Of a DNA stretch of 64,000 nt, positions 4,929-55,803 are shown one piece after another (the first letter of the stretch is position 1; the number at the start of each line of letters is the position of its first letter). The translations under genes and the position numbers were made by a program. Below the pieces are notes generated by a model. That model did not search any database. It was not told the origin of the DNA and was given only the letters and a program-made list of their open reading frames with translations. Source of the DNA: Rhizaria sp. SCN 62-66 (lineage: Eukaryota); NCBI GenBank assembly GCA_001724265.1, contig MEDY01000048.1, positions 1 to 64,000 of the forward strand, written 5' to 3'.

Positions 4929-7476
4929 TCACGGCGTCGCAGTCGGAGTTTCCTCAGCGTGTGACGACAACTTTGCGGAAAACCCACCTGCAGCGCTGGT
5001 GACGTTGGAACTCGTGTCCGCCTGCGCAATACTGCTAGCAGGGACGAAAGTGCGGCGCTTTGCACCGGCGCTGTGCGTGTTGTTGACGCCGGCCGCAGCC
5101 GAGTTAGCCACGGGCGTGATGTAGCTCGACGGCGACATCGGACACATAAACGGCTCGATCGTCGGCGACACCGCCGCCCCATACCCCGCGGAACACGTGG
5201 CACCCGTGTTGCCCGCGACTGCGGCGCCATTGTTGTTGTCGGTGTTACGATAGCAGTGCACGTGCGCGTACCCGCTGTTGCTGTTGTCGGACCGCGCAGG
5301 GTGCGGCCGCCGCTGCTCGCGCCGGTCCTGCTCAAGCCGCAGCGCACGCAACCCGGCGCTAATGCTGAAGTCTGCCGCGAAGGGCGTCAGCGCAGATAGC
5401 GTGGACGTGGCGGCCCAGGCGAGCCCGCGCGCCCACCGAGTCAGCGTGTAGCGGTCAGGATCGCTTGCCTGCAGCTGCTGCAGCTCGGTGACCGCAGTCA
5501 TCAGCGTGGTGTGCGTGAGGTCGCGCAGCTCGGTGCAGGCACGTTCGCTCTCCTCTTGACCAGCCCATGCTGAGGCGTCGATCGGCTGAGGGAAGAGAGA
5601 AAACAATAAGGATAGATTTGACAGCATAAAGTAAGACATGCACAACAATTTAGCAAATAAAACAGGTTCGTCACATGTTTATGACTTATAATGCAAAAAT
5701 CGCAATCAAAAGATGAAATTTGTGTTGTTTTTCGACGTACCTCGCCGATCTTGAAGTACCAGCGCTGCCAGTGCTGAGGCCACGGGATAGCAATCGGCAC
5801 AGACACTGGCGTTGAGCCGTCCGTGTGCTTGTTCCTTACACCGGAAACAATCTTGCTTCCTGCGGCTGGTACTTTGCTGGAGCTGAGAGAGCTCGACACT
5901 GCCCCTTGAGCAGTCGCAGCGTTCTCAGTGCCCGCAGCGAGAGTACCAGAACTCGTGCTGCCAATGACGCCGGCGTTAGCGTTGGCAGCACTGTGCAAAG
6001 TGGCGGCAGCAGTGCTCGACCGCATCGTCCGCGGGTTATGCGGTGGAGAGAGTATGTCCTGGTCACTAGCTCCGCCCTCACCGTCACCCAGCGCAGTCGC
6101 TGCAGCTCCCGCAGTCACCGCTACCGCAGTCTCTGCCCCTCCATTAGTCACACTGTCACTCACACGGGCACTGGCAGCGGCGGAGACGGCATCGGCGGCG
6201 ACCTCGGCGGCAGTGACGACGGTCAGGTCCTTGTTGCGGCCCCACAGCCACTCGAGCGACACGTCGGCCGCGACAGGAAACGTCTCGCTCGCGCCGACTG
6301 ACGCGACCGGCACAACGACGGCGCCTGTGGCGATGGCGAGCTTCGCGAAGCCGAGGCGGCTGCCCCAGTAGAGCTTGTAGGGCGGGTCATCGGCGCGGCG
6401 CATCACCTCGCGGCCCCCGCCAGGGTACAGCAGCAGAGACCAGCTGACCAGTGTTGCACATGCGCATATAGCACAGACCAAGCAATTCAAGTTTGAAGAT
6501 ATATGAGTACAGATTTGAAATGTGAAAAAGACATGCAACAAGGCGGTGTAAACCGGTTTTGTGACTATCAATTCAAAACACACATGTTCAAGTGAGATAA
6601 ACACAATTTAGCTGAGTATGAAAAGTGTCGTACCCGCGGTTGAGGAGCTCCTCGCACGTCTCACGAGTGCCAGGGAAGCCGCCAATAAAGCGGATAGCGT
6701 CGCTCCAGAGTGGGAAGTTAAAATGTCCTAAGCAACAAACAGACACAGACGAGGGAAATAAGTTATGAAACAGTGCATGAGCGAATAGACGTCTATGATT
6801 CCAGTTTGCACTTTAGTAGTCACACATGGCGACTTAACTTTTGACTCGAGAGCGGGAATATAAGTACCTTTGTGCGCGACGCCGCGCATGAACATGTCGA
6901 GCTTGGTGCAGAGACACCACTGCAGCAGCAGCATGTCCACGCCGAGTGTTGCGTGGTTGCCGATGAAGATCAGCGGACGCCGCTTCGTGTGCACGTTCGT
7001 GTGGTCGCGCTCTAAGTGCGGTCTAAGGGGATACTTAGACAGCGCGGAGCGGAAAGTGGTTGACGCAAGTGGAGTCCGGGCTAAGGGAGACACAAGCGGC
7101 ACAATGCTTGTGGTAGAGCTGACCTTGGTGTCGGTGTTACCGCTGTTCACAGGAGCTGAGGTACTGATGTCGCTGATGTGTGTGCTGTTATACTCACACT
7201 CTTTGCTGTCAGATGCACTGCCATCGTGGTTTACGCTGGCGTCACCGTGGGCATCAGTGCCAGCGATCGTCCTCGCACTCTTGAAGCTGTTGTTGTTGTT
7301 GTTATTATTATTAGTGTGACTTTCAGTGTTGATGCTGCACATTGGCGAGAAGGCTTTGAACTGATCGTTGCCCTTCAAGCCAGAACCAGTGCCAGCAGAG
7401 TAGGCATTCGCGTTATGAGCGCCATCAGTCGCGGTGGAAACGGTATCCGTGTTCACCGTTAGACCATTGCCAGCAT

Positions 7477-7523
<47 letters not shown>

Positions 7524-9807: not shown

Positions 9808-11632
9808 ATGCGCTTTGCGCCCCTAACCTTCATGGCCGCGCTCGGCGCCGCCCTTCTCCTCGCCACTCTCGCCAACGCTGCTGCCGCTGAGCCCGCCGTC
9901 GCCGCCGCCGGCACCGCGACTGCCGTCAACGGCAAGACCGTGCTGCTGAAGCGCCCGCAGGCGAACCTGATCCCGGAGCTCTACCCCGAGAAGTACCCCG
10001 GTCTCAAGGCGCGTCCCACCCCTGCTCTGGCACTGGACCAGTTGCCCAGCGAGTTCAACTGGTGCGCGCAGGGCTCCGGCTGCGTGTCTAACTGGCAGCA
10101 GCACCTGCCCAAGTACTTCCCGCTCTGCTACCTGCACGCCACGCTCACGATGGTGGCGGACCGCATCCGCCACGCGCTGCACGGCTCCGGTGTCCCCGAC
10201 GTCGTTCTTTCTCGCCAGGTACGCTCTCCTCCACCAACAAAAATCGAGTTATCTCAACAATATGTGCGCTTAGAAATGTATAACTTAACTTTTCAACTGA
10301 ATAGTAGTTTCACATTGTATATTTTGATTTTACTTCTAAATTCGAACCTCGATTTTCGTTGACTCTCTCTCACCCTTATACTATTCGCGAATGTGCGCGC
10401 GTCCCTCTCCAGGACGTCCTCGACTGCGCCGGCGCGGCGGGCTACGGCCAGGACGCCGGCGGCGGCGGCGAGGGCGTGGACGTGCTCGAGTACCTTCGTC
10501 AGCACGGCGTTCCCGACGAGACCTGCAATCCTTTCACCGGCAAGCTCGACAACAAGTGCAACGCGGAGCAGCGCTGCCGCAACTGCATGATGCTGCAGAA
10601 CGACAACCTGCCACACTGCTTCGACGTGCCCAACTTCGTCCGTTACCGTGTCACTGACTATGGCTTCCTCTCTGGCGAGGCCGCCATGATGACCGAGATC
10701 CAGGCTCGCGGGTACGTCAAAACTGAAAATTACACTAAAATGCATTAATCTCACAGCTATTAACATATACGAATCCAAATCCGAGATGTATTTATATTCC
10801 AGCGTTCCATAATCTAAATCAACTTCTATCTTTTTATTTCACGCCCATTATATATAGTCCTATCACGTGCGGTATCGCCGTCGACGACGACTTCTGCTTT
10901 AACTACCGCGGCGGCATCTACCGGGACCCGAACAACGCGACCGAGGTTGACCACGACGTTGAGGTCGTCGGCTGGGGCGAGCAAGCACAGATCAACGGCT
11001 CGGTGCTCAAGTTCTGGGTCATCCGCAACTCATGGGGCTCGTACTGGGGCCACAACGGGTTCTTCCTGCTTGAGCGCGGTGTCAACGCCATGCGGCTTGA
11101 GGAGAAGTGTCTTTTCGCGAACCCCGATGTGTCGGAGCTTAACGCGCACCTGGCGGGCAACTCTGTGGGCAGCATGTTCGGGCTCATCCCGCCCAGCGCT
11201 GCCCCGCGCATGCTTCCGCCGGGGTGGAAGCGCGCCAAGCACGACTTCATGACGGCCAAGGAGGTCGCGGCGGGGAAGAAGGAGGGCGAGGACGTCGACG
11301 CGTGGATCGAGGCCAACCTGCCTAACGGCCGTCCGGTGTCTTACGCCATGTACCCTCCTCTTGATGCTGCCGTGAAGCCCGCTGCTGAGGGCTCCGAGAC
11401 TGCTGGCGGTGTGGCGCTGCTGGCGACCGGCGCCCCCGTCACCACCGCCGCTGCCCCCGCTGCCGAGGGCACTGAGACAGCGAACAAGCCGTCTAGCAGC
11501 ATCTTCGAGACGGCGTGGTTTTGGGTCACCATTGGCTTCGCGGTCATCGCTGTGTGCACCTACTATTGCCTCATTCGCACTGGGCAGAGCCGCGGCTACG
11601 AGCCCATCAGCGACCGCTCTGCCACCGTCTAA
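9808..11632 (+). CDS. Cathepsin Z/X-like papain-family (C1A) cysteine protease with C-terminal TM anchor, 3 exons (9808-10218, 10413-10711, 10858-11632)
   Basis: Signal peptide; LPSEFNW; QHLPKYFPLCYLH (cathepsin Z QHIPQYCGSCWAH equivalent); LSRQDVLDC; GVPDETC; EIQARGPITCGI; DHDVEVVGWG (His); WVIRNSWGSYWG (Asn); TM segment FWVTIGFAVIAVCTYYCLI; tail GYEPI. Confidence 0.9.
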
Positions 11633-12089
11633 GTACCTCCAGCACTGAGTACGTGCACGCAATGACTTTGAGCTGTTGCGTACAAAAACAACAACAACAA
11701 AGAGCTACAAAGAGCGATCTGTCTTATTTCTTCAAGTTGATTTTCTATGAGTTGATTTTAGTAAATGAGTGAAATAGTATGATTTTTAGCAAACATATCC
11801 TCAGATGCTTGCTGGTCTAAATGAAATTAAATACAAAGACCGCAATATTATGATCTATTCCTTCGCTATCGAGTCGCAGTGACACAGCCGCAGTCAGGCC
11901 TCACGTCAGCTTGACGCTGGCATCGATTTATTTTTCATGTTACGCACCGACTTAGTGGGGGCGCAGTGCGGGTCTTGAATCGAGCATAACGAAAGATATG
12001 ATTGACGACGGTGACTCAATCTAATCTTAATAACTATTTTGAATCACTTTTTACTTCCGCCTAAACAACTAGAGCAAGCTAGGGGCGAT

Positions 12090-14724: not shown

Positions 14725-14853
14725 TGGAGAGGCCGACACATATGTAATGATAAGCCATGGGATATTGAGCCAACGAAGATTTATGGAATAATACAAATGT
14801 AGAATGAATGAATGCATTTATTAAATCCATGACGACGACTTCGAGTTGACTTT

Positions 14854-14939: not shown

Positions 14940-14961
14940 CTTGATCCGTCAAACTGTACAC

Positions 14962-16194: not shown

Positions 16195-17523
16195 TTACTT
16201 TTTGTTGGCATTGACGCGGCCGCTCTCAAGCATCATCGCCAGCGTCTCGTTATCCACATCAATATCACTGAACACATCGCTCCACTCCTCATGCGTCAGC
16301 AGCAAACTCTCCGTGATCTGCGAAAGCGCATCTTCGTAGCAGTCCTTGATCCGGTCCCACTGGTCCTGGTCGATCTTCAGCACCCTGACACTCGCGGCAG
16401 CGGCAGCGGCTAAGGGGGTACTTACACTCGCCGCACCGGCCGCTGCAGTCGCAGTTGAAGTCGCGGCGTCTGCGTTGCCCTCATTGCTGTCATTGTCGCT
16501 GGTGCTGTTGTTGTTGTTAGTGACACTGGAGGTACTTTGAGGCGGTAAGGGCTCGACGCGCGCGTGCCCGCACTTGAGCAGATGCTTCCACGCCTCATCC
16601 TTGCTCACCTTGCCGTCCTTATCCTTGTCCAATTCCGCAAACACGGTGAACATTTCCTCCACCAGCTCGTCCGTCCGCACGCGTCCCAGCGCACGGCCCT
16701 TGGCCCCGCGGGGCTTGCGCCGAGCCACCGCCACCGCCGCGGCCTTGGTGTTGGGGGCCGAGGCAAGTGGCGGCAAGGGGTCGAAGAAATCGGCGACCTT
16801 GTCGAAGAGAGAGTCGAAGAAACTGGTCTTGGCGGCAGCAGGCTTCGCCTCGGTACTCGTGGTACCCGTGGGGTTGCTGTGGTTGCGCATGGGGCGGGGT
16901 TGGGGCTTCTCACCGACGGCGGCCGCGGCGGCGGCGGAGGGCAGAACGCCGGACAGCGCAGCGGCCGAGACGATGTGCTGGCGCGGTGTCGCTGCAGATG
17001 CAGACGCAGAGACAGAGCTAGAGCTAGAGTTCGCGTGCGCGCCGTTCGCGGCGTCAGGGTCAAAAGAAGCAGAAGCAGTAGCAATGGACTCAGGCTTGGC
17101 GCCATCGTCGCCGTTGTTCTTGGCAGATCCCTCGGCGCCATCTGTTGCGCTGCTGGCGTCTGTGTGGTTGTTTGCAGACGAAGGAGATGCGATTGACACG
17201 AGCTCAGACGCAGTGGCGGCAGCAGACACAGTCTCACGTGCGAGCGGTTTAGCAGCGGTCACGCCGGACGGGTAAACAACCTGGGCCTGGATCGGGGCAG
17301 AGCCTGAGAAGAGGAAATCATCGTCGTCGTCCACGGTCGACTTACTGAAGAGGCTGTCGCCGCTGTCGGTGCCGTTGCTGCTGTTGTTGGCGGCGTTGGA
17401 AGGGCTGGTTTCGAGCAGGGAGTTGAGAATCTCGCGACGACGGGACTCCTTGGCGTCGGCCTCGACAAAAGAGTCAACAACGGCGTCGAGCAGCTCGGCG
17501 CGGCCCTTGTGAGCAGCAGACAT
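16195..17523 (-). CDS. EF-hand calcium-binding protein with long Ala/Ser low-complexity N-terminal half, 442 aa, intronless
   Basis: Canonical EF loop VFAELDKDKDGKVSKDEAW; GC-rich ORF with ATG and TAA flanked by AT-rich DNA. Confidence 0.75.
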   Translation of the reverse strand: MSAAHKGRAELLDAVVDSFVEADAKESRRREILNSLLETSPSNAANNSSNGTDSGDSLFSKSTVDDDDDFLFSGSAPIQAQVVYPSGVTAAKPLARETVSAAATASELVSIASPSSANNHTDASSATDGAEGSAKNNGDDGAKPESIATASASFDPDAANGAHANSSSSSVSASASAATPRQHIVSAAALSGVLPSAAAAAAVGEKPQPRPMRNHSNPTGTTSTEAKPAAAKTSFFDSLFDKVADFFDPLPPLASAPNTKAAAVAVARRKPRGAKGRALGRVRTDELVEEMFTVFAELDKDKDGKVSKDEAWKHLLKCGHARVEPLPPQSTSSVTNNNNSTSDNDSNEGNADAATSTATAAAGAASVSTPLAAAAAASVRVLKIDQDQWDRIKDCYEDALSQITESLLLTHEEWSDVFSDIDVDNETLAMMLESGRVNANKK

Positions 17524-22504: not shown

Positions 22505-25500
22505 ATGCGTCCTGGCCGCAAAGCGCGCACGTTGCCGTCGCAATTTCGCGTTGACAAGAACGTCATCGACAGGTCCGTCGTCGTCAAAGCCCACCCTCAC
22601 TAAACTCGTATCTAGCGTCCTAGAACAATTGCCGCTGCAAGCACCACCTTTATTTTTCTCTTATTCGTGCTGTATTCCGTTTGTATGTTTTGTTTATTTT
22701 TTGTTTGCGCAGGCAGCAACGCTTCCAGGAGCAGCTCGAAGACAGCGGCCATTACCTGCTCCTGTCGCCCCTCTGCCCCGACGACGCGACGCGCCTCGCC
22801 GGCACGCAGCCTCCGCCGCTCGACGCGCTCTACGCATTCCCGCAGTGCAACGCGCAGCCCGTGCTGGCAAGCGATGGCAACGGCATCGTGCCCGACTCCC
22901 GCGTCACGAACCCGCTCGGCCTGCCTTCGTACGCGCCGCCGCTGCCGCCACACTTGCTCCCCTCTGCTCACAGCAGCGCAAACACAAACACAAGCGCGAG
23001 CGCGGGCGCGGTTGCCACGGACACGGCGGTGAGCTCGCGCGACGCGTTGCTGCCCGCCTGGCCGTTCCCCCCGTCAGACTCCGAGGCCTCAGACTCAGAC
23101 TCAGACTCCGGCTCCGACACTGACGACGACGACGATGACGGCGATGATCATGACGCTGTTGGTCGCCGCCGCCGCAGCAGCAAGGCCCGCCGCGCCGGCT
23201 GTCGACAGCGGCGCCCAGCCTGCCTCCCCGCCAAGGGCGCCCCCTCGTGGCTGCTGCGGGCGTCGCGCGAACGACGTCAGTCGCGGCGCTTCACAGCCTC
23301 CGCCGTCACGGCCACCGCGCTCGCGGGCCCGGTGCTGGTGTCGGCGCCGGCGGTGACCGTGAGCAAAGGGGCCTCGCTCGTCGTGGTCGCGCAGCACAAC
23401 CACAAGTTACTCACGGGTACCTACGTCAACACCACAAGCAGCAGTAAGAACAACAACGCCAACGACACGAATGCAGCGAACCGTAACTCCACGGCAACAG
23501 GGAAGCCGAAGTTTGCTTCGATCACCGAGGAGGACTGCATTCCACAGCAGCAATGCGAGCATCTCGACAGCGATGCCACTGCTGACCGTGAGCGGCAACC
23601 TCAGAGGGGCGGCTCAAGTGACTGTGAGAAGGGGCAAGATCACGACGACGACGACGAGGAGCCGAGTGACTGCGAGCAGATTCCGGCCCATCTGCCCTTC
23701 GCAGCCGCAGTGCCCTGGCAACGGCCGCTGTCTGCGCCGCCGCCGCTGCTGGCGCTGGCCGCCGCCGTCGCCGCATGCTCCCGCCTCCCGAGTACCGCGG
23801 GCACCACCAGGGTGTCGAGTGCGAGAGACTGTCTCATTGCCTCTCTGACGGCCCCTGCTGCTGCGATGACTGCCCTCCACAGCTACCAACTGACTGTAGG
23901 CCGCAGTAGTAGCAGCAGCAGCAGCAGCGGCGGCAGCAGCAACGCTGACAGTGAGCACGACGGCCACAAGGCGGCTTCCCTTCTCGCCAACCCCGGTTCA
24001 GCGGCCGAGACGGCTGAGAGTGAGACTCCTCGTAGCTCGGTGTTGCCCCGGGTGGCGGCTTTACTGTCTGCTGCCGACTCAGCAATGGCGGCGAGGTACG
24101 CCGCCCTGTGGGCCGCCGCCGAAGCCTCCACGACCACCACAAACACCGCAAACAGTGCTAGCGCAAACACTGCGAATGTGAACAGTGTGAGCGGCAGTCT
24201 GATGCACAGCGGCAGCGATGTCACAGTGAACGTGGTCAACAGCGGGAGTCTGGTCGGCATGCGAAGCCGTGCACCGACCGAGATGCGTGTGTGTGTCGTG
24301 CATACGAATGCGCCAGTGCCGTCGACGATTAACACTCTCAATGCGAACAACACTGCTTATAACAAGAACAAGGCACAGATCAGCAGTCGCACGGTTTCAG
24401 TTCGGAACGCTAACGGTGTGCGGAGTAGTCTGAATGACTCTGATGAGAACGTGGACACGAGCAACGCTCCCGCCAGTCTAAGTACCCCTCAAAATGTAAG
24501 TAGCAATGTCAGTACCGCTTGGCCGCTGTCTTCATCGTCAGAGGCCGTGACCGTGCCGTCATTCCGCATCGACTACATCAGACCGGTTTCAGTCGCCGCC
24601 AACGTCGTTGCGTGCGCACCGCTGCCCATCAATCCCCCTCACTGCAACAGCAGGAACAACAACTACTACTACAACAATCATAATAACAGCGCTATCAGTT
24701 CCTCGGCGTGTAACAATGAGGCTGAGCCTAAGGCAGGTGATATCAGCGCCGATCCCGCCAGTGACAATGACTGCGCCGGCGTCGCTGCCGTCGCGAGCTG
24801 GCTGGCCACCCTCGCCGCGGCCGGCAGCAACCCTCTCCCGGGCATTGTCATGCCGTCGCCACTGTCCAGAACCGCTAGGGGTACCTCTGGGGGTACTGGT
24901 GACGCCCACGGTCACCCCCCGGAGATGACCCGCGCGACCTCACTCACGAGCTCCAACTCTGGCTCTGGTTTGGGCTCTGGCTCTGGCTCTGGGTCTGTGG
25001 TGCCGTCACGTCGTGCCTCCATCGCTGCCACCTCGGCCAACAATCACACTAATAACAACAACAACAACAACCACAATCATAACTCTAACAGCACGAACGC
25101 TGGCAAGACGAAAGCGAGCGCTCAGGCGGCGGCGGCGTCCAAGGGCAAGGGTACTTACACTGACACCGGCGGCGTCGGCGCGTGGCCGGCCGCCCTGCCG
25201 ACCCCCTTAGTCACCACCGACGCCTACTTACACGCCGCCGCAGCCGCCACCGCGCTGCCGACCGCGGCCGCCGCCGCCTCCGCCGCCACGGCCCACAGCA
25301 GCTCAAGCGCTGCCAGTGCGGCAGCCAGCGCTGCAGCTGTGGCGGCCGTGCCCTGGAGGCATTACTCGGGGCCCAGCGGGTTCTGGCTGAGGCCGCTCGC
25401 CGGCGCCGGCCCCGCGCCCGCGAGTACCGGCACCAGCGCACCCACGCGTACCCTCTCGAGTACCGCGGGTTCCGGTAGCCGCAGCAGCAGCAGCCACCTG

Positions 25501-35581: not shown

Positions 35582-35621
<40 letters not shown>

Positions 35622-39318: not shown

Positions 39319-39367
<49 letters not shown>

Positions 39368-40991: not shown

Positions 40992-43900
40992 ATGAAACCC
41001 GTCCGCTACGTAGCTCTATCAAGCTCCCTCGACGTCGGGTTCTGGACTGCGTTCGTCAAGCGCAAGATCGAAGTTGACAAGCTTGACGAGCGCTCGCTGA
41101 ACCTGCTGGGGCTCTACACCACCACGTCTCGCCCGCAAATCCCCCCGCGTCTCACCCTCTCTGGAGACTTCTCCTACTCGCTCACATCATCGTACGTATC
41201 TCACTCGAAACAAAGCTAAACAAACGCATACCATACGAAAGAGACGCTCGTCTTACCAAATACGCGTGGTATGTACTCATATACTCTGTTTTTACTCTTT
41301 TTCTGCGTTTCCTCTCCCGCTTCAGTCCTGGCGCGATCAATGTGCCCGTGCCCGTGACCCTGCGCAACTACAACACGCGCGAGGGCTTCCTCGCCGCCCC
41401 GTTCTCCGCCTGGGACGCCGACCTCACCGCGCGCGCGTGGGCCGCCGTGCTCTCCGGCCGCGCCTTCCTCGCCCCGCACGTGCTGACGCAGCTGGGCGTG
41501 TTTGTGTTCGCCAACCTCAAGACGAACAAGTTCCTCTACCGCGTCAGCATGCCGTCTCTGCGCCCGTCGCACCTCGCAGTCTCCTACTGCGGCACGGACG
41601 CTGCCAGTGGCGACGCGGCGGCTGATAACGCGGGCATGGTGCCGATCAGCCAGGTTTTGACCGACAAGCAGTACAACGAGCTACTGAACGGTATCGCCTC
41701 ACTCTATAACAATACCACTGGCAACGCTACCGGTGACAGCTCGAACGTCAGCGCTACCGCGAGCGCCCCCGCTGCATTCATTGTGCACACCGACAACACT
41801 GGCGCCCTCTCCGTCTCCCCCTTTGCCACGCTCGCAATGCTCTCTGACATCACCCGCCACTACAACGCCGACGCCGCCGCGGCCGACGCAGGCGTTGCCG
41901 CAGTCGTCTGTGTGCCTGACTGGGCCAAGCCCGCCGCGCTCGCCCTCGCCGCCTCTCTCGCCAGCCGCAGCAACAACAACTGTGGCAGCGGCGGTCCCAA
42001 CAGCAGTAGGTTCATGCTCGGCTTCACGGACCCCGCGCTGCTAACCGACGGACCCGGTGCCCCGCTGCGCGCTCTCCTCGCAGCGGCCGCACTCGTGCTG
42101 CCCGCCGAGGCGCTCGCGGCGCTCACGGTCGTCTGCTTCAGGGACATCGTCAGCGCGGCGCAACACCGCGGCGTTATTGCAGCAACAACCAGCCCCGTGA
42201 GCAGTTGCAGCGAGGCAGCGGACGCTGCTGTGTCCGCCGTTGCCGAGGCCAAGTCGACCGTGTTCACAGCCTGCATCAGCGCCAGCTACCCCGCCGAGCT
42301 GGTCGCATACGCCCGCGCCTCCGCGCTCGCAGTTGTCTACGCCGTCTCTGAGGGCGCCAGTACAGCGGCTGAGGCATCCCGCATCATCAACAGTGCGGTG
42401 GCTGCCGCCATCAGCATCAGCGCCGGTAGCGCAGATGGCGCGGCGAACGCTGCCGTTCCGTCCCGCCGTGACGCGCCTGCGAGCTCCGACGACGTCGCCG
42501 TTGACGAGTCACGCGCTGTCGCGACCACGTTGCGTGGGTTCTGTTTAAACACCCCGATAAGCTCCCCCTTAGCCGGCCTGAACCTGTCCTCGGCGCTGGC
42601 CAAGTGGCCTGCAGAGGGCGTTTCGTACTGGGAAAGCGACGAGTCCGGACGCGCGCGGCCGCGGGTTGTGGACCTCAGTGCGCAGCTTGATAAGTACAAG
42701 ATTATGGAGACGAGTGTGGACCTCAATCTGAAGCTTATGAAGTGGAGGTTGCTACCTAATCTCAACCTTGACACCATTGCAAGCACAAAGTACGTCAAGC
42801 GCTGCATAAATCGTCTACGATATCAGGTCCTCTTATTTCAAAACTACATGCAATGCTCTTAAAACAAAATATAAATGTCAATTTCTAACAGTTGTGATTG
42901 TTGTTGTGAATAATATTGCACTGAACAGGGTTTTGCTGGTCGGCTCTGGCACACTGGGCTGTAACGTGGCGCGTGCACTGCTCGCCTGGGGCGTCCGCGA
43001 CTTCACCTTTATTGACAACGGCCGCGTCTCGGCCTCGAACCCGGTGCGCCAGTCGCTTTTCACCGCGCTGGACTGCGCAGACGGCGGCCGCCACAAAGCG
43101 CTCGCGGCGGCCATGGGGCTAAAGGCAATCTTTCCGGGGGTCCGCGCTAAGGCCGTGTCGCTCAGCATCCCGATGCCGGGCCACGGCGCCGGTACTGCCG
43201 CTGCCGCTGCTGCTGCTGCTTCGACCACTGCCACTGCCAGTGCTGGCGCGTCGACCGCGCAGCCGAAGCCGACCCGCGTCCCCGTCCCGATCCTCTGTCC
43301 CAACAACAGCACGAGTACCCCCACGGGCTCCGTCGCGGGTACCGTCGCGGGTACAGGTGGCGGCGGTGCGCAGGAGGCCGCGTGCGACGAGTACAACAGC
43401 GTCGAGTTCACTGTGTACCCGGACGTCGCCGCTGTGGCCGCCGACGCACTGTCCGCGCTCATCGCCGAGGCTGACGCGGTGTTCCTGCTCACCGACTCGC
43501 GCGAGTCGCGCTGGCTGCCGACGGTGCTCTGCCAGGCGCACGACAAGCTGTGCGTCAACGCGGCGATGGGCTTCGACAGCTTTGTGGTGATGCGCCACGG
43601 TGCGCGTCCGCTGGTCAAGGAGGAGAAGAAGAAAAAGATGTCCTCTCAGGGCGCCGATGATGCCGCCGCCAGCAGTAGTACCCGTGACGCCCACAGTCAC
43701 TTCACGAGCGACTTGGGCGTGGACTGGTCGCGGCGGCCTAACTTCGGGTGCTACTTCTGCGCCGACATCGTCACCCCGGCCAACTCGCTCAAGGACCGGA
43801 GCCTGGATCAGCAGTGCACGGTGACGCGGCCGGGGCTGTCGCTGGTGACGTCTGCGCTCGCGGCCGAGCTCGCGATTGCGGTGACGCAGCACCGGAAGCG

Positions 43901-45651: not shown

Positions 45652-48556
45652 ATGTGGTCTCGTCGCGCAAACCTCGCCGACGAAGACGACAACTTCTCTG
45701 GTAATCCCCCCACCAGCACCCCGCCCGTGCCTGGCTCGGCCGTACCACCCGGTCGTCACCAAGGCGCCCCCGGCGACGATGACGAGGACACAGGCGGCGA
45801 TGGCGCCCCGTTTATGCAGTTCATGCCCCCAATGAACCGCAAGACGCTTTTCTCCAGCAACGACGCTGACATGTTGGCACAGCAAGACCAGTTTATGCGC
45901 TCGCGTGCGGCCCCCTCTGCGCACCTCGCGCGCCGGCCTGGCCCCCGGCTTGACCCCTCGTCAACAGCGCACTCCGCAGCGGGTATTACCGCATCGTCGC
46001 TTGCTGGGGATCCACTGGGCCAGCGCAGTGCCCCACATGTCACAGCGAGCCTCCCTCATGGCGCCTCTGCTGCGACCGCTGCGACTGCGAGTCAGTCTGC
46101 TGCTGCTGCAATGCGGCCGGCGCTGACTGACGCGACGCCAATGCTTGCTGCCACTGGCCCGATTAAGGAGAGGGTCCGGCCGCCCCGTTCCTCCAACATC
46201 AACGCTTCCTACAATAACAATACCGCCAATAGCATCGCTCAAAGCAACGGCCCTACCGACGACACAATGTTCACAGCTACCGCTGCTTCTGCTGCTGTTG
46301 CTGCTGCGGATGCCACCGCTCCGCAGACCGAGACAGATGCTCTGGTGCGCGTCCCGGTGACCGCGGCCGCCATCGCCGCCGCCGGTCTGAGCTCCCGTGT
46401 CAACCCGAGTCTGGGTCTGTCACACGCTCTAGGCGCAGGTGCCAACGCCGCCAGTGATAGCTCCAGCAGTCCGTCCTCGCGCGGGGCAGCTGTTGCGGGC
46501 GCCGCCGGCGGCTGCAACCCTGCCCGCTCGCTTCCCCGCGCGAGCCAGTCCCGCCCCGGCCGCAGCAGCAACCTCGGTCTTGACGACGATGCCGATTACG
46601 ACGAGGATGACTACGGCGAAGACGGCGCTGACCTCTGGCATAGCAGCGCGCCTTTCGCTCGCACAGCTGCTGCCTCTGCCGCTGGCGCTAGCGCTGCTGC
46701 TGCCGCTGCTGCCGCTGCTGCTGCTGCTGCTACTTCTGCTGATGCTGCTGCTGAGACTGCGGCTGCTGTGCCTGCGGGCCGGATGGCGCCGTCGGCAGTG
46801 CTGGTGCGGGCGCAGCGGCCGGCCGGAGGCGGCATTGTTGGCCTCAGCCGCGCTGCGCTTGACGCCGCGATTGTCGGACAGGTTTCGAAAAAAGACACGC
46901 CCTCCGAGGAGGAGCAGAGCGACACCACCGCCGCCGCCGCCGCTGCTGCCGCTACTGCTGCTGCTGCTGCTGCTTCTCAGACTAGCAGGCATGCGACTGT
47001 CGCAGCGAAGCGCGTTACATTCAGCGGCGACAACAACAACAACTGTGGTGATGGCAAGAGCGTGACTACCAACAACGCCGTGCTTGCAACGGCGAGTGAC
47101 CCTGCGCGGGAGGGCAGTGACACCGAGCAAGAGAGCGACGCGGAGGAGGCTGACATGCGCAAGCCCTTAGGCGGCCTTATCCCTCACTTCACTGGCGGTG
47201 GTAGCACGCGTACCGGAGGTACTGGCTCTGGCGGGGGCGCGAATACGCACTCTGAGGCGATTATGGCGCCCAACGGTGCAGTCACTGAGCGCACGCGTCC
47301 CGCCCGTGGCGCAAGCAAAGCCGGTCTAAGTACCGCTCTAAGCACCCCCCAGGCTCAGAGTCACACTCAGATTCCAACGCAGACCCAGAGTCAGGTCCAG
47401 AGTCATAGCCAGAGCCCCCCAAGTGCTACCAGTGGTGGGTCTATTCTCAGCGCCGCTACCAGGAAGCCGCGCGTGAAGGATCTTGTTGCACCTATCACAC
47501 AGCACCTCGAACATGAAGTTAAGCCGCGTGGAGTGGCTGCGCAGGAAGTAAAGCTGCTGTCGCAGGAAGTCAAGCCGCAGCCTCCGCATGGGTATGGTTT
47601 CCCAGTCGCTGAGTCGGTTTCTGCCGCAGTCAATAATCGCAACATCCGCAATGTGAAGAGCTCCACAAGTGCTGTTGCTGCTGCTGCTTCTGTTGCCGCG
47701 AGTGTTAATGCAGGTTTTACATCTGCTGCCAGTGCGACTGTCGGCGAGCGCACCCGTCCTGCCCGCAACAACAGCAACAGCAACAATAATATCAACAACG
47801 ACAACAACAACAACAATAACAGCAATAGTAGCAATAATAAGACGACGAGCGCGGTGACGCCTGCTATCCAGAGCTCTAACACTAACTCTAGCTCCACTAC
47901 GAGTGCAGGTGCGGGTGACAAGCCTCTGTCGGTCTTTGCGCAACAACGGCTTGCCCAACGCGCCAGCAGCAGCGACACCGCAGATGCAAGCAGTCTGAAT
48001 GTGAGTCGTATGATTCACCAGAGCTCTGCTTCTGTGCATGCACCCGCGAAGCAGCAGCGCTCGTTTGTGTCCCAACTGACCGCGACCGCATCGACCGTGC
48101 CGGTGGCCGAGATTGCTGCGTTCTCGCGCGAAAACGACGCCGCGCTGGCCCGCATGTCTGCTGCAGAGCTTGCGGCAGAGCAGGAGGAGCTGATGGCCTC
48201 GCTGTCGCCCGCTGTAATCGCGATGCTGCGGGCTCGTCGGGCGCCCAATCAGAGCAATATCGCTAACGCCATCGCTAACAATAACAATAACAACTCTGAC
48301 TCGACGACTACCAACGCCGGTGTCAATGCTAGTTCTAGCAGTGCGACCGAGTCGACTCCCGAGGATGCTGACGTTGATGACGGCGACGACGATGACGATA
48401 AGGGCGGCGGTGACATTGACGGCCACCGCGACGCCACTGCTGCCGCCGACGCTGCAGAGGCGTCTAAGTACCCCCTTACATCCTCTGGCGAAGTTGACTG
48501 GTACGCCGACCCGTACACTCTCGCAACCACTGCCCCTGAGGCACTTAAGCACACTT

Positions 48557-48588
<32 letters not shown>

Positions 48589-51500
48589 AGCACTCATGCA
48601 ACTGGCTTTGGTCCGAGTTCAATTGGCGATGCCACTGCCGCTGCCACCGCTGCTGCTGCGGCCGCCCGCGCCGCCGCTGCTTCGTGGATGCGGCCTGTCA
48701 CTGCCGAGGACGCCCGCTTGCTTGGCGACACCACCGCACCCTTAGCCGGTGTAAGTACCCCCTCAGACGGTGTAAGTTCCGGCGCGTCGGGAGGCATGCG
48801 TGTGCCCTTAGGCGGCGACATCTCGACACTGCCCACTGTCGCCGTCGCGAACTCCAACACACCCAACACTGGCCTTATGAACGCTAACGGTGGCGGTGTA
48901 CTTAGCGGCAGTGCGAGCGCGAGTGTCTCGGCTACGGAGGCGCGGATCGCTGCCGCTGTTGCTGCTGCTTCGGGTCTCACGTCGTCAGAAGCAGCGGCTT
49001 CCCGCGGTTTCACGCTCGCTGAGTTTAGCTACAGCCACAACATGATTAACCCTAACTCCGGGACACATATCAACTCTAACGCAAATGGCAGCACTATTAG
49101 TACGGCTGCTATCGCATCCTCCACTCGTTCTGACCCGTCTCAGCTCTCCCTCTCTGCCGCGGCCGCCGCCGTTTCCGCCGCCTACGGTCACACAGGCGGC
49201 GGCGGCGGTGTGTCAGAGCGCACTTTGCTCAGCGAGACCGGCCTCCCGGCTTCGCTGAGTCTCGACTGGGCCAACTGGCGCGTTGATCTGTCTGGCCTGC
49301 CTTTCGACGGGCTGGACCCTGCGACGGGCCTCCCGCTGCCGCCCGCCGCCGCCGCCGCCGCTGAGGCCGCCGCGGCCGCCGGCGCCCGCGAGCTGCTGCA
49401 CCACAGCGCTCAGGCGGCGCGGCCCGGCTACACGCTCAGCGAGCTGACTGACTTGGCCCGCAGCGCAGTCGCGGGGCAGAGGGCCCTGGCGCTGGCGGCG
49501 CTGACCGCCGTCGTAGCACGCGCGCGCAGGCACTTGTACCGCTATCCGATCATCGCCGCCGCGCAGCAGAAAGGGGAGGGGTCGCCCACCTCGCCTGTTT
49601 CAGCGTCCTCTTCAGTCCCCGCCGTCGTCGCCAGCGAGGTCGACTACTCGCACTTGGTGCTCAGCTACATGTTCTTGCGCGCGCGTGTGCCAACTCTGCT
49701 CCGCACGAGTCTCGATGACGTTTCGCCGACTGTGCGCGCGTCTGCGCTGTCGCTGCTGCGGGGGTGTTTGGACGCGGCACCCGGGGCTGACCCAACTGCG
49801 CCCGCCGCGGCCGCGGTCGCCAGCCTTAGTCGCCGGCTCCCGCAACCACCCCAGTCCTCACCCTCACCATCGCGATCGCAACCCCAGGCAGATGCACGGT
49901 CGCAGTTGCTGTTGCAGACGCAGTGGAGGCTTGACTCCGCAGCCGCCAGTGTCGCCGACACTGCGGCCTGGCATTCCCGGTGCACAAAGGACGGCGCCGG
50001 CGCTTTGTGGGGCGCGAGTGCTCTGTCACAGCAGAGTCTTGTCTACGCCAATGCAGCGTCGAACTTCGCTGCTGCTTATAACGCGAGCGTCAGCGACGAA
50101 GTGCGCACAGAGAACGATGCGAGTACGAATGCGGAGTCTACTGAGACTGAAACCGCAACCGCGAGCAGTGACCGTGAGCAGCTGCAGCAGCAGAAGGCAA
50201 CAATTGCATCGATGCTCTCTGTTGCTAACAACACGTGGCGCGGAGCATTAGCCCATGACTCCCTCCCTTGCCCTTTGCTCCCGTCGCCGACGCCGCAACT
50301 TGCTCTCTCTCTCACCTCGACCGCGACTGTGACTCACAACGCGCCTGCGACTACGAGCGGTGTGAGTAGTTTGAGCAATGTAGCCTTGCCGGTCCCCGCC
50401 CCTAGCTCCGTCGCGTTCGACCTCTGGGCCGGCCACCTGCTTCCCGCGGCCCGCCCCGCCGCCGCCGCCGCCGTCACCGCCCGTGCCCTCGCCCAATGCG
50501 CCGCGGACGAAGACGTTCCGGCCCGCTCCCGCGCGCTGCGCCGTCAGTTCGCCACGCTGGGAGGCGACGCAGAGGCGCAACTGCAGCGCCGGCTGCGTCG
50601 CGCGCGCGCCGCCACCGCGTCCAACCCGAACAATCCCGCCGCTTGCTCTAGCGCGAGTCAGGCTGCGAGCGAGACTGAGGCCGCTGCAGTGTCCGCTTCC
50701 GTCGCTTTGCTTCGCGAGACCCCTGAGGAGGTCGAGGCCGCCGGCGAAGCCGAGGCCGCCGCCGAGGCAGACGCTGCGCTGGGTGCGGTCGCCGGCGGCG
50801 AAGCGGCGTTGTCGCAGGACCAGTTAGCAACGTTTGACCTCGTAGCTTGCCTCTGCAATGAAGCGCTGCTGCCGCGGCTTCGGTACCTCGTCCAGTCAGC
50901 CGGCTCCACCGCCGCTGCCGCCATCGGCTCTAGCTCTAGTTCCGTGTCATCCTCAGTCAACGCGATGGCTTCAGCCGCGCTCGCGGAGCAAACCTCCGCG
51001 CTGCTGGCGCTAGACGCGGTCGCAGCGCACTCTGCGCGCGCGTGCGAGCTTGTATGGCATACGCCGCACTTGATTGACGCGCTCTGCTCCGCTCTCGCCG
51101 CGCCCGTCACGGCGAACAGCAGCACCACAACCAGCCCTGATACAGCCGCCACGCCAGTGCCTGCGAGTGCAGCTACGTTGGCGTCGCTGCCACTGTTGCG
51201 CCGTGACTTGGCTGCCCTGGGCTTGGCGACTCGGCTGTGCTCCTGGGAGCCCGCCGCTGCCGCCGAGCTCGCCGGCCGCCGCGGCGCTCTCGCACACGCG
51301 CTGCGCCACGTCGCCAACGCCGCCGCCGCAGTGGCGTCCCACTCCACGGCCCCTACAGCCGCTTTGACCGCGGACAACGCCGGCGCGGCGAGTGCGGTGG
51401 CGCGTGCGGCGGCGCTGTCGGCGGCATGCGCGTGCGGCGTCGCAGCGCTGCGGCTGTGGCGCGTGTGTCTGACCGCGGGCTCGGGCACGGCGCAGCTGCT

Positions 51501-54500
51501 GGCTGCGTTTCCGGCGCTTGTCGACATCACGCGTCGCCGCCCGCCGGCTGTGCTCTCGCCTGCGCTTATGCAACCTCTCTTCTCGAACACCGCCAACACT
51601 GACGCGGGCGCGAGCAGTAATAATATGCGCGCGAGTGTCCACGCCAGCGCTGTGTCGGTGCCGACGATGGCGCAAGCGCAGGCCCACGCCGCCACCGCGG
51701 CCGCGCGCCGGAGCGTCCGTCACCTCCAGCGCGCAGCTTGGGCCGTGCTGGAAGCCGCTCTGGCCCGGTCCACAGTCACTCTGCTGACGCAGGTCTCCTC
51801 GGCCGCAGGCGCAGACAGCGAGGCCGCCGCGGCGGTCGCAGCGGGCGGCGGCGACGGGCTCACGTTGTCGCATCTGGCACGCGTCTCTGAGCACGCATGG
51901 GACGCGTTGGCTGCGGAGCACGCCGCGGCCCCGCCGGTCTCCGTTCCTCTGTACGCGCGCTCGACACCTGGGAACAACAACACCACGAGCGAGGCTGACA
52001 CTGCGACTGCAACTGCGACGCAGATTGACTGCGGCACGGTGGGTTGGAGCGCAAGCGTCGCAGCCGTCGGATGGACTGGCGCCGATACACTCGCGCTCGC
52101 GGGACCCTTACATTTCCTGGCTACTTACATGACCACAGTCGCCGCGCACCCGCAGTTCGGCGCCCCCGCCCTCTCACTACCTGGAAATCGCAGCCCCGCC
52201 GCCGCCGCCGCCGCCACCAGTCAAAGCGAGGGCTCTAAGAAGATGACTGAAGACGCAACTCCTGACTCTGCGGCTATCGGCGGTGCCGCCGCTGGCGACA
52301 CGACTGAGGGCTTTTTGACCGCACTCGCAGCGCAGGCCGCGCGGGTCGAGAACGAGTACTTAGCACTTACATCAAGTTCCTCTTCGGAGCAACATGTAAA
52401 TACCCCCTTAGACGTGGTCAAGGTGCCGCTGTTGGCGCGCTTTGTTCTCACGCAAATTGCGGCGACGCACTCGAACTCGGATTCAGACTGCGCGAGCAGC
52501 AGCAACGGTGCCCTTGCGACATCTGTCATTGACGCCGTCACTAAGAACATTGCCTCAAACAAGAACACCACTGCGGTTACTGTTAGCGCTGCTCAGGTGA
52601 CGGAGACTAGGATCAGCGCGAATACGGCGTTGGTCCTGACTCCGGCCCCCGCGGCCCCTGCTCCTGAGTCTTCGCTTCCCTACCCTTCTTTGCCGTGCTC
52701 TGAGCCAACGCCCGCCGCCGTCGCCGCCGCCGCGCCCGCCGCCGCCGCCGCCTCCGCCGCCGCCGCCGAGTTGCTGCTGGCGGCCACGGAAAGCACTGCT
52801 ACTGCAAAGACGCGTGTCCGCGCGGCGCTTGCGGTGGCTGCGGCGCAGTCGCCTGTGCTGACGGATCTGAGGCTCGCGATCGCACGGTTGCTGCGGGCGC
52901 GGCGAGCACTTGCCTCTGCTGCCACCGCGGCTGCTTCTGTTTCTGCATCTACAACGCCAGCGACTGCAATTGCGCCGGAGACTTCTCAGAGCGGCGGGGC
53001 CACGAGCAGCAGCGCCTCTAGTTCGAGTGGCAACTCGCGCAGCAGTAACGCCACGCTGCTTTCGCCTGCTCTGTTCACGTCTTTGCTCGCAACTGCGCTC
53101 GGTGGCGGCTACGATGCGTGTGGCAAGTTAAGCCGCCTCCCGGCAGCTGCCAGTAGCGTCGACCGTAATAGTGCCTTGTTAGTCGCTGAATGCGCTCTGT
53201 CACTCAAGGAAAGTGCAATCACTGCGGAATGCATTCATTCGTCGAACGCGTGCAGTGCGAGTGCGAGCGCTTTGTTTGATGCAGTGAGTCGTTTGCAGTT
53301 AGCTTGCGCCGGCGCCGCTGCTGCTGTACCTGTTCTGTTCTCAGAAGGTCTGCCTGTCTCTGCGCTGTCGCTGGCGCTACGGATCACCCTCGACCCCACA
53401 GTCACGCGTCTCATGCGCACGCTCTGCAATCGCAACAGCACTCGCAACAACTACAGCGACCGCATCAGTGACAAGAACGCTAGCTGCCATCTCTCGGTGA
53501 ATGTTGACTCTGTTGCTGCTGGTTTAGCGAATGCTCCAGTGCCGACTGAGTGTGTGCGCACTCTCATCCCTGCGTCCCTGGCGCTGCTGGCTCTCGTCTC
53601 GGCGCACACTGGCACCGACTCCGGTGTCGGCGCCCGCGGGCCCCGCGCGCTGCGAGCGCTCATCACCGTGTGCGAGCGTGCGTTCGTCGCGGCGTCCGCA
53701 GTTGCGCTCAATCTCCACAACACGCACCACAGTCACGACGACAACAACAGGAACAATGTGAGTGGCATCGAGACTGAGAGCACTGAGGCTGAGAACGCGA
53801 GTGCGAGCGCGAGTGTGATTTGGGTGCCGCTGCGTCCGACACCACAATCACTGCTGCTGCCAGCGCTGCTGGACTCGGTCTCGCCAGGTGGCGGCCTATT
53901 AGCCGTCATCACGGCCGCCGCCGCCGCCCCCTCAGCGGGCCTCACCCCGGTACCCCTGGGCCGCAGCCGCAGTCACGGCGCAAACCGCACCGCTGCAGCT
54001 GCCGCAAGCCAACTTAGCGAGCGTAACAACGCCAAGACCGCGACTCCCATCGCCAGAGCGTTGATCGCGGCCGCGCACCTGCCTCTGTCCCCCGCCTTCG
54101 ACGTTCTCCTGCTGCCTTCGCTGCCCATCACGCCGCCGCCGCTGTCGGGCGCCGGCAACCTGGGGTGGGCGTTAACGCCGGTCGCCGCCACCGTCGCCGT
54201 CTGCGTCCGCGAGGCCGCCGAGGCCGAGGCGCGATCCGCGCGCGCCGCCGCCGCCGGGGCCCGGGCCGTCGCCGAGGTCGCGGCCGAGTTGTCCCGCGCC
54301 GCAAACGCTGTCGTGCTGGATGCCCGCGTTGTGGCGGCGCTTGAGGCTGAGCTTGCAGAGACCAAGGCGGCCGTGGCCAAGAGTGCCGCCGCGATGCGCG
54401 CCCGGGCCGAGGCCGGCCGCACGGCGAATCAGGCCGCGCTGAGGCTGCTGCTCGATGGCGTTGTTGTTGCGACGGCGCCTTTGGTCGCAGCTGCGAGGCG

Positions 54501-55803
54501 CGGGTTTGATTCTGGAGTAGTTACGACTGCCGAATCCAGTGTGGATACAGCTATGGTTGTCGTGAATGTTCCCGGGACTGACTTCACGCTCGCGATTTCG
54601 AACAACTCTCGCAAGATCAGTCAGACTGCGGAAAACGCGGCTTATGTCGCCGCGGGTAACACATGGCCTTCACGGTCCTTCGGCGCCCTGCTGGCGTCGC
54701 ACGCACATCGGGCTGTGATCGAGATCACACGCGCTCCTGGGCGTCTCGCTGCCGCTACAGTCACCCCCAACAACAGCAATACCGACAACAACCCTATCGC
54801 AAGCACCGAGACGAAGAAGGATGAAGGTGTGTTGTTGCGTTCATTAGTGGAGCAATTGCTGTTTGGTGTCGCTCTGGCTGGCCCTATCGCCACCGCCACC
54901 CGTCTAAGTACCCCCTTAGACACGGCGGTTTGTCTAAGTAGAACCTCACCGCGCTACTTAGTTGCAGACCTGGAGGCCCCGCGCCACACTGATGCCCCCT
55001 CTGTGCAACGCGTTTGGGGCTCCGTCTCGGCTAATCCCACCGCAAACAACAGTAACAACAACACTAGCGGTAATAATGCGGGCAACGCCAACAGCACACA
55101 GACCGCAGCCGGAGCGTCTTCACTGCAGCCCGCTGCCGCGGCCGCGGCGCTGCACTCGCGCGCGTACCAGCTCTTCGGTGACGCGCTTGAGAGCTTCCTT
55201 TCTGAAGGCGGTGGCGATACACTGGCGTCCGCGGCGCTGGCACCGCTGCTCTCATCGCTGTGCAGGGCCAGGGACTTCCGACGCCGCGTGTGGCGCGAGC
55301 TGATGCTGCCAGCTGCGCGGTCAGTGGTGCTGCCTACGGTCACTTCCGCGCGCGGCCACTCTGCCGGCGCCGATGCTGAGGCTGATGCTGAGGCTGATGC
55401 TGGCTGTGGGACTGCAGCGGCGACCGCTCACTGTCACTCTGGTTGCCGCAGTGTGATTCGCAGTCAGACGCCGAGGGCCACGCCGATCGCGTGGTACCTG
55501 GGCGCTGCTGGTGCGACCGCGATCTACGCGCCCGCCAGTGAAGTGATCGGCGTGAAAGCGCCGTTGGACGCCCCTGATGTCGTCGACCTGTGCTTGACTG
55601 CACTTAAGGGCGACGCCAACCGTGGCGTGTCGCTTCTCAAGCCCGCGACACAGCCACTGACGTACGCCGTGGCTGTTGCGCAGGCCGCGGCGAAGCTGTC
55701 GCTGCAGGGTGGCGTCGGTATGACTGTGGGGCAACTGGGGCTGGGGGAGAAGGCGAGGGTCGATGTCGAGGCGGCGGCCGAATCGAAGCTATATACGCTC
55801 TGA
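45652..55803 (+). CDS. RPAP1: RNA polymerase II-associated protein 1 (RPAP1/Rba50/IYO) homologue, 3383 aa, single long exon
   Basis: RPAP1_N-type EIAAFSRENDAALARMSAAELAAEQEELMASLSPAVIAMLR (~48109-48235); RPAP1_C-type RVDLSG...LLHHSAQAARPGYTLSELTDLARSAVAGQRALAL (~49280-49500); later LLPRLRYL and AAHSARACELVW..P.L helical segments. Confidence 0.85.

Follow-up and report, generated by a model that had tools for sequence, protein, structure and literature searches.

A 20-base, near-palindromic nucleotide word recurs in the protein-coding DNA of the stretch shown here, positions 1 to 64,000 of contig MEDY01000048.1 (assembly GCA_001724265.1, Rhizaria sp. SCN 62-66; hereafter the window). The word is confirmed as real and far beyond chance: it is in excess at the nucleotide level, its arms are held at a fixed spacing, it is biased to coding DNA and to the sense strand, it is read through in the genes that carry it, and it is spread over unrelated genes. 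A preliminary description had proposed an intragenic binding or recombination site, or a transposon footprint. The reading tentatively preferred here is that the mRNA strand carries a cis-word, which would have arisen through the choice of codons where the protein is tolerant and would be recognised in the RNA by a putative factor that may serve the handling of long messages. The DNA examined comprised the 64 kb window and about 26 kb of other contigs (about 90 kb in all), from one uncultured lineage.

Excess, form and dispersal of the word

The window was scanned with GTCTAAG-N6-CTTAGAC at up to three mismatches. Ten matches were obtained, against a mean of 1.27 (standard deviation 1.24, maximum 7) in dinucleotide shuffles, 0 of 100 of which reached 10. 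Nine of the ten copies claimed before were recovered as quoted (7021, 16408, 25853, 30990, 33887, 48462, 48749, 52394 and 54902; Table 1); the other, at 42555, was missed by the scan because of its four arm mismatches and is weak and doubtful. The tenth match of the scan (1762; three mismatches, unrelated core) is probably due to chance. An exact GTCTAAG is present at all five of the half-sites that had been listed (11627, 24476, 35264, 47324 and 54932), continuing as GTCTAAGTACC in four and as GTCTAAGTAG in one.

Matches in coding DNA (41,637 nt) numbered 3, 8 and 10 at 1, 2 and 3 mismatches, respectively, compared with 0.01, 0.10 and 0.98 in shuffles of synonymous codons within each gene and 0.00, 0.04 and 0.56 in shuffles of codon order. 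The observed count was reached by 0 of 200 shuffles in any mismatch class; the excess therefore holds over codon-aware controls, and the motif cannot be put down to the amino-acid sequence and the codon usage of the genes. The preference for a 6-bp spacing was equally borne out: eight arm pairs (at up to two mismatches) were counted at spacer 6, versus 0 to 2 at any other spacer from 0 to 30, and everted arm pairs gave no comparable peak in the same scan. Trinucleotide repeats aside, the 6- to 8-mers of the coding DNA most over-represented relative to synonymous shuffles were pieces of the 20-mer (GTCTAAGT, 10 versus 0.22 expected; TAAGTACC, 10 versus 0.52; TAAGTA, 16 versus 1.68). Since the copies at 52394 and 54902 show 0 differences in DNA contigs from another sample and study (X2 records 6 and 8), they are not assembly artefacts. 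A high-depth contig (X5) that matches 48739-48766 only, flanked on either side by another short piece (joints 48660>48739 and 48766>50168, sides of 26 to 28), was left unused because of the risk that it represents a repeat or another organism.

Written with its core as TACCCC, the consensus is [GA]T[CG]TAAGTACCCCCTTAGAC. The layout described earlier, inverted arms around an asymmetric 6-bp core, stands as regards the arms and their spacing but not as regards a core acting as a free spacer: the core is as conserved as the arms, and the unit is therefore treated as a single 20-base word. Its left word, GT[CG]TAAGTACC, also occurs alone and perfect, among unrelated neighbours, at 11627, 24476, 29468, 35264 and 47324, with close variants at 29492, 33095 and 54932; its right word is CCCTTA[CG]AC, of which CCCTTA[CG]A recurs alone too. 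The cores of the two words are reverse complements, and their tightest arrangement is the 20-base near-palindrome. Seventeen copies were placed, nine in the window and eight on other contigs (one in L009 being ambiguous and that in L004 excluded, see below); the core keeps its orientation in 14 of them and is antisense in 3. Copies differ by 0 to 3 scattered changes and show a sub-family structure, in that a CA prefix accompanies the GTG variant: the identical 22-mer (CA plus GTG variant) is found in 5 of 7 GTG copies, on other contigs. Partial or duplicated arms adjoin full copies at 7010/7021, 48739-48781 and 54902-54961 and in L004 and L009.

A scan of JGI metagenome contigs with the 20-mer returned ten copies on nine contigs, nine of the copies being on eight GC-rich contigs of one metagenome. 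These eight contigs are eukaryote-like, carry the copies in open reading frames (ORFs) and share only low-complexity matches with the window; PRMT5, Thg1 and a CwfJ/zinc-knuckle protein are among the genes concerned. In the window, the word is carried by genes for an RPAP1-like protein, a PP2C-containing giant, an EF-hand protein and a papain-like protease, and by an acyltransferase-like ORF. Five unrelated genes had been claimed to contain full copies; four do hold solid ones, but the fifth holds only the weak one. Prokaryote genomes (596 billion bases) gave a single match of the 20-mer, in a Clostridia metagenome-assembled genome, where about four were expected by chance (own arithmetic), and the viral contigs scanned gave none. 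Its restriction to contigs of one metagenome, together with its near-absence from prokaryotes and viruses, indicates that the word is lineage-specific and dispersed over the genome. The ninth contig, L004, encodes a protein with a phage-type DUF4224 domain; its copy was not counted, since it is probably a chance match in DNA of a bacterium or phage. This exact 20-mer (132-151) is followed by a second CTTAGAC, in a neighbourhood of the kind where integrase attachment sites occur. Near-perfect palindromes built on the same arms around different, self-complementary middles were seen in L003 (about 3000-5300; GTCTAAGGGGC/GCCCCTTACAC) and at 4790-4809 of L005 (TCTAAGTG-GA-CACTTAGA).

The word is located mostly in low-complexity or variable stretches, and many copies are near GCC/GGC/CAG tracts. 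The suggestion that it is hosted by low-complexity inserts is right for most copies but not for all, the flanks of several (7021, 52394) being ordinary complex sequence. Flanks are unrelated between copies, similarity ends at the edge of the unit, and a tandem-repeat search did not find the 20-mer as the unit of any array. One explanation on which these observations bear is that of a neutral by-product, a short, unique passenger sequence that ectopic gene conversion or template switching would have carried from one low-complexity coding tract to another. It would account for the proximity of many copies to repeat tracts; in-frame conversion of repeats would preserve strand and register; and other low-complexity words with fixed codons (AGTGCGAG and TGCGAATG types) recur across genes, as does a 15-mer, CCTAAGTGCCCCAAG, common to 31486 and 60428. 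Neutral dispersal is nevertheless considered rather improbable, given the complex flanks, the lack of similarity between copies beyond the unit and of tandem arrays, and a frequency of the 20-mer that is beyond the reach of unbiased conversion.

Strand, coding DNA and reading frame

The left 10-mer, GT[CG]TAAGTAC, was counted 9 times in sense (0.06 expected) and once in antisense (0.05 expected), and the right word, CCCTTA[CG], 21 times in sense (4.5 expected) and 4 times in antisense (3.2 expected). At sites where synonymous codons are compatible with it, the left 10-mer occupies 9 of 11 in sense versus 1 of 12 in antisense (Fisher p 0.0006). The copies in two minus-strand genes (7021 and 16408) are also sense, so that the bias follows transcription and not the strand of the contig. 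On the other contigs, with the ascertained copies masked, the left core was found 9 times in sense versus 2 in antisense, and the right word 8 versus 3. When both strands are counted, the arm GT[CG]TAAG occurs 31 times in 46,395 coding nt versus twice in 17,602 non-coding nt (p 0.002); the 17.6 kb of non-coding DNA in the window hold 0 of the 9 full copies.

A site in double-stranded DNA, bound by a dimeric protein or by a tyrosine recombinase, is to be weighed against these biases. Tyrosine-recombinase sites consist of two inverted arms, usually of 11 to 13 bases, around an asymmetric crossover region of 6 to 8 bases; like them, and like dimeric transcription-factor sites, the word has inverted arms (7 bases) around an asymmetric 6-base spacer at strict spacing. 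Position 3 varies independently in the two arms, as in half-sites (positions 3 and 18 pair in 8 of 19 copies versus 9.1 expected, hand tally); the 7-base arm is similarly occupied in its two orientations at compatible sites (20/163 versus 11/140); the short core is enriched on both strands; and the registers of the full copies, given below, fit a strand-symmetric word under protein tolerance. However, the left word, in its 10- and 11-base forms, and the right word are both specific to the sense strand, the core is conserved like the arms and mostly held in one orientation, the conserved arms are short against known recombinase sites, and the word is confined to coding DNA and nearly absent from non-coding DNA, where such sites could sit freely. 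No recombinase, integrase or transposase domain was found in 31 ORFs of the window and 9 of the other loci scanned against Pfam, and no well-supported rearrangement joint begins or ends at a copy among the joints listed, which derive from contigs and not reads. Neither the recombination site nor the dimeric site of the preliminary description is upheld by the sense skew of the half-words and the depletion of arms outside genes, and a double-strand DNA site of either kind is judged improbable.

Among the 17 placed copies, 0 lie in a register that contains a stop codon (TAA, TAG; P 0.001 if registers were free). Twelve are in sense and read LSTPLD, two are in sense and read SKYPL, and three have the core antisense. 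Equal use of the four stop-free registers (12, 2, 2 and 1) is rejected (p 0.0003), and the counts fit the product of the amino-acid frequencies of the encoded peptides (p 0.24); the full copies, considered alone, are therefore also compatible with a DNA word that has no strand preference and persists where proteins tolerate it. Frames and orientations do vary, as had been stated, but are heavily skewed. The conserved length of 20 to 22 bases is no multiple of three, and every reading frame nevertheless continues.

The codons of the word are indeed rare ones (CTA, 4%, and TTA, 5% of Leu codons; GTA, 6% of Val; AGT, 16% of Ser). The peptide [LV]ST is barely above expectation (23 versus 18.5), yet the rare codons of the motif are used in 9 of the 23 and in 5 of 5 [LV]STP, in agreement with the earlier claim that the constraint is on the DNA and not on the protein. 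A short linear protein motif, [LV]-S-T-P-L-D, is encoded by 12 of the 17 copies; it retains hardly any probability and is already refuted in practice by the codon invariance, 0 of 5 [LV]STP using common codons. The same DNA also yields the peptides SKYPL and SKGVL, and one exact left word consists of a stop codon and untranslated bases: it supplies the stop of the protease gene (11627), which shows that the word is kept even where no peptide is coded.

The word might also act in translation, either as a slow cluster of rare codons or through hidden stops (+1 frame, antisense) that end off-frame translation in GC-rich giant genes. This would suit a word that keeps to the sense strand and to coding DNA and is read mostly in one register, in which TAA and TAG fall in the +1 frame. 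The core [CG]TAAGT is in codon phase NTA-AGT in 16 of 21 cases, CCC precedes 24% of TTA codons, and AGT follows 16% of both CTA and GTA codons. Countless sequences would serve such a function, however, making a 20-base consensus needless; the second-register and antisense copies (5 of 17) misfit; and the base after TTA is a purine in 37 of 50 cases (hand count), only a modest excess over the expectation for GC-rich first positions. A translation-level signal is thus held to be very improbable.

Table 1. Positions in the window of full copies, lone words, other repeated words and introns.
Feature	Position	Strand	Context
Full copy, exact consensus GTCTAAGTACCCCCTTAGAC	54902..54921	+	sense, RPAP1-like ORF 45598-55800, register R-LSTPLD
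Full copy, 2 mismatches (right arm CTTACAT)	48462..48481	+	sense, register SKYPL
Full copy, GTG variant, 2 mismatches	48749..48768	+	sense, register VSTPSD; right word CCCTTAG before, GTGTAAGTTCC after
Full copy, 3 mismatches (ATGTAAATAC...)	52394..52413	+	sense, register VNTPLD
Full copy, 2 arm and 1 core mismatches	25853..25872	+	sense, PP2C-containing ORF 22624-40479, LSTSSA
Full copy, TACCCC on minus strand	30990..31009	-	antisense to gene; read SKGVLT
Full copy, antisense core (TGGGTA on + strand)	33887..33906	-	read LSGYLD
Full copy, exact arms, core TATCCC	7021..7040	-	sense, minus-strand ORF 6731-8455, SKYPLR
Full copy, GTG variant	16408..16427	-	sense, minus-strand EF-hand ORF 16198-17598, VSTPLA
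Doubtful copy, 4 arm mismatches	42555..42574	+	ATG7 N-terminal exon
Lone left word GTCTAAGTACC	11627..11637	+	TAA is the stop of the last papain-like protease ORF, 10739-11629
Lone left word GTCTAAGTACC	24476..24486	+	sense, LST; second TGTAAGTAG 18 nt downstream
Lone left word GTGTAAGTACC	29468..29478	+	sense, register VST
Left-word variant GTCTAAGTAG	29492..29501	+	sense, register LSS
Left-word variant ATGTAAGTACC	33095..33105	+	sense
Lone left word GTCTAAGTACC	35264..35274	+	sense, LST; right word CCCTTAC 4 nt upstream
Lone left word GTCTAAGTACC	47324..47334	+	sense, LST; then CTCTAAGCACCCC
Left-word variant GTCTAAGTAG and exact inverted partner CTACTTAG, 12 nt apart	54932..54961	+	
Ser-Ala/Ala-Asn words (examples)	26365; 37279-37295; 37882-37897; 53254-53266; 61848-61932		
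Other introns read	5600-5750; 6560-6800; 10680-10800; 18660-18820; 19450-19700		AT-rich, 100 to 200 bases

Insertion, reading as RNA and known systems

The palindromic elements of Rickettsia are in-frame selfish palindromes in protein-coding genes; they are bacterial, measure about 100 to 150 bases and stand out as clear insertions when orthologues are compared. The word is like them in being a palindromic repeat found in many unrelated ORFs, read through and placed in tolerant parts of proteins, and could be their eukaryotic counterpart, that is, a very short selfish palindromic element, or the remnant of one, that survives where it is in frame without stops. Such an origin would explain why identical, sharp-edged 20- to 22-mers stand between unrelated flanks in unrelated genes, and why the word, with its rare codons, is foreign in composition to the GC-rich genes that host it. 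Partial and duplicated arms adjoining full copies, a few scattered changes between copies, as in a decaying family, and the sub-family with CA and GTG point the same way, and an empty stop register is what a purifying filter would yield.

Unlike the Rickettsia elements, the word is eukaryotic and nuclear, 20 to 22 bases long, sense-biased and rare outside coding DNA. A test of 19 copies for target-site duplications of 2 to 7 bases, at boundary offsets of -3 to +3, was negative (best, 5 of 19 for a 2-mer). This result, the lack of a transposase domain in the 40 ORFs scanned and the depletion in non-coding DNA (2 versus 31 arms), where insertions would be best tolerated, do not support the transposon footprint that had been put forward. 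All frames continue through a unit that is no multiple of three, the stop-free registers are used unequally, and the lone left word is found 9 times in sense versus once in antisense. In the PRMT5 homologue (L005), the copy is in a variable loop of the TIM barrel without added length, the loop being 5 residues shorter than in the human protein by a weak, distant alignment (E 0.26). In neither the window nor the other loci was a longer element with these termini noticed, although no dedicated search was made and the arm-pair scan covered spacers of 0-30. A selfish element is on balance unlikely. If the word is one, the authors know of no in-frame mobile palindrome in a nuclear genome that is nearly as short, and it would be a candidate contributor to the growth of inserts in proteins.

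Tiny in-frame introns (GT...AG, 18 bases) were also considered, as most copies start with GT and have AG at bases 17-18, and part of the word is like a generic splice donor. The probability of this is close to nil. The stop register is empty, GT or AG is missing in 52394, 48462 and 30990, and none of six introns read in the window starts with the word; their donors are unusually uniform (GTACGA/T in five, four of these being GTACGTC, and GTATGT in one). The copy at 54902 is retained in one short X7 contig, the only contig of this kind to cover a copy, from the same library as a spliced ATG7 junction; this is weak evidence, as DNA may be present in the library too. The window's own introns, and the enrichment of both core orientations, also led to the rejection of a splice-donor or U1-type reading.

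In the cis-word reading that is tentatively preferred, a lineage-specific word on the sense strand of coding DNA, made up of left and right words, would have been built up by codon choice and point substitution, and not inserted whole, at places where L/V-S-T-P-L-D or a similar peptide is tolerated in the protein, mostly in low-complexity or loop segments. It would stay in the mRNA and be translated, and a trans-acting factor that recognises this sequence would most likely read its RNA form. Such a factor could be a protein or a guide RNA about 20-22 bases long, and the 20 to 22 conserved bases suggest the one as much as the other. A plausible role would be the marking or handling of long, almost intron-free messages. 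More doubtful is the wider proposal that a 20-22 base address is present in a large share of the genes and is read on the mRNA by a guide RNA or a dedicated protein; such reading would license, export, localise or co-regulate long intron-free messages, and would amount to a genome-wide cis-code laid over the genetic code.

Folded as RNA in a 30-base context, copies with two perfect arms are predicted to form a stem of 7 base pairs with a 6-base loop (-8.7 to -11.4 kcal/mol). Of the 12 copies folded, 5 form the stem over all 7 bases, and the commonest variant (GTG left, GAC right) opposes G to G. The independence of positions 3 and 18 reported above gives no pairing covariation, which could be masked by coding constraint at position 18 (Asp versus His). 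The complementarity of the flanks is not in excess of that of permuted flanks (mean -6.09 versus -5.89 kcal/mol, p 0.34). On these measures the word does not qualify as a structured RNA hairpin.

Several points weigh against reading at the RNA level. TACTTA[CG] is also enriched in antisense, with 9 occurrences versus 1.7 expected (the maximum of 300 shuffles was 9); the antisense short core is often the inverted partner near a sense copy, as at 54932 and 54954, and the longer half-words settle the strand question as a bias to the mRNA sense. On a purely RNA-level reading, the three full copies of 17 with an antisense core have to be explained as variants that preserve the arms or as partners of sense copies. 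A near-palindrome is what would be expected of a double-strand DNA site or a hairpin. The register pattern of the 20-mer is explained equally well by a strand-symmetric DNA word under protein tolerance, and the identical 22-mers in 5 of 7 GTG copies have the appearance of descent from a single master sequence. Among the few untranslated regions that could be inspected, none showed a copy. No trans-acting factor, source locus for a small RNA or known RNA family was found, Rfam 15 giving 0 matches at gathering score over the window and nine loci (91,803 bases). Finally, the material is of one lineage (64 kb and about 26 kb), and the choice between substitution and insertion rests on the distant PRMT5 comparison: a search for PRMT5 orthologues returned the query only, low-complexity words having swamped the candidates, and searches of solved structures with the whole PRMT5 ORF and with its C-terminal piece gave no match.

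The DNA uptake sequences of Haemophilus and Neisseria and the Chi oligomers are bacterial words of 8 to 12 bases that are common between genes and are served by uptake or RecBCD machinery. The word is like these in occurring far above chance at poorly constrained coding positions, with some inverted pairs, and its codon-aware excess and peptide-compatible frame bias are the pattern of an over-represented oligomer of the uptake-sequence or Chi type in coding DNA. It differs in following the transcribed strand and in avoiding non-coding DNA, and the resemblance is one of pattern, not of membership. Export-promoting elements in human mRNAs that naturally lack introns, and the hexamer clusters recognised by the YTH protein Mmi1 of fission yeast, are also sense-strand words in coding sequence, several per message, and act on the fate of the mRNA; they are 6 to 10 bases long and non-palindromic, and their factors are known, whereas the word described here is of 11 to 22 bases, near-palindromic and known from sequence alone. 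It fits the definition of none of the systems compared (Rickettsia elements, uptake and Chi words, intronless-mRNA elements, Mmi1 clusters).

Bacterial extragenic palindromic repeats (REP elements) are described as high-copy sequences of 20 to 40 bases tied to a dedicated transposase (PMC3733652); they share with the word that both are palindromic repeats, the word being intragenic and eukaryotic. A literature search, in sources available in part, revealed no account of a comparable eukaryotic element, which is no proof of its absence.

Should the word prove functional, it would show that a nucleotide signal common to many unrelated genes can be borne by rare codons in the low-complexity parts of eukaryotic proteins, and the 20 bases would provide a bait for finding the reading factor in an uncultured lineage. 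An RNA-read address, if true, would be a eukaryotic, RNA-level analogue of the bacterial uptake or Chi words. Either way, the word matters for gene prediction and for models of codon usage, as a quarter of TTA and a sixth of CTA and of GTA codons are in these words.

Host DNA, introns and other repeated words

The host is an uncultured, GC-rich, intron-poor eukaryote of wastewater reactors, and the DNA of the window is nuclear. Metagenome runs in which the stretch was found are from bioreactors, wastewater, activated sludge and fuel cells (11 rows, 7 studies; one is perhaps the source sample). Coding stretches are GC-rich, and the DNA between genes is AT-richer. Two giant ORFs are uninterrupted: one of about 5933-5952 codons (22624-40479), which contains a PP2C domain, and one of about 3383-3401 codons (45598-55800), which is the RPAP1 homologue. 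Both are hugely inflated conserved proteins, rich in low-complexity runs of Ala, Ser, Asn and Gln. Further genes of the window encode an EF-hand protein, a papain-like protease and a Kelch protein. A close relative was sought with ATG7 and none was found, the best non-self matches having 71% identity over 16% of the query and 47% over 90%; in cluster look-ups, the clusters of the window and of L005 were all single-member, with no variants.

ATG7 is encoded by two ORFs (N-terminal and ThiF), parted by an AT-rich intron of 139 bases at 42790-42928 (GTACGT ... CTAAC ... CAG). Splicing joins 42789 exactly to 42929 in contigs from cDNA-type libraries (X5 record 10 and X7 record 25). This intron is thus confirmed by spliced contigs, and the other five (Table 1) were deduced from ORF breaks and sequence. 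The ATG7 intron is still present in a contig from a poly(A) library; with 6 differences and 1 gap over 375 bases, this contig belongs to a slightly divergent strain.

Coding words of a second family are also in excess. They encode dipeptide repeats of Ser-Ala (AGTGCGAG type; 15 versus 2.9 expected) and Ala-Asn (TGCGAATG type; 10 versus 1.2 expected) in invariant codons of the rarer kind (AGT, AAT) and occur in several unrelated genes, on both strands. The 15-mer CCTAAGTGCCCCAAG, common to two genes (31486-31500 and 60428-60442), is like the left word, with G for A and a different tail; CAAGTGCCCC, at 25837, resembles this 15-mer. A short tandem repeat, ATAACCCTA, is present in 2.6 copies at 33197-33219 in the giant ORF and is telomere-repeat-like in composition.

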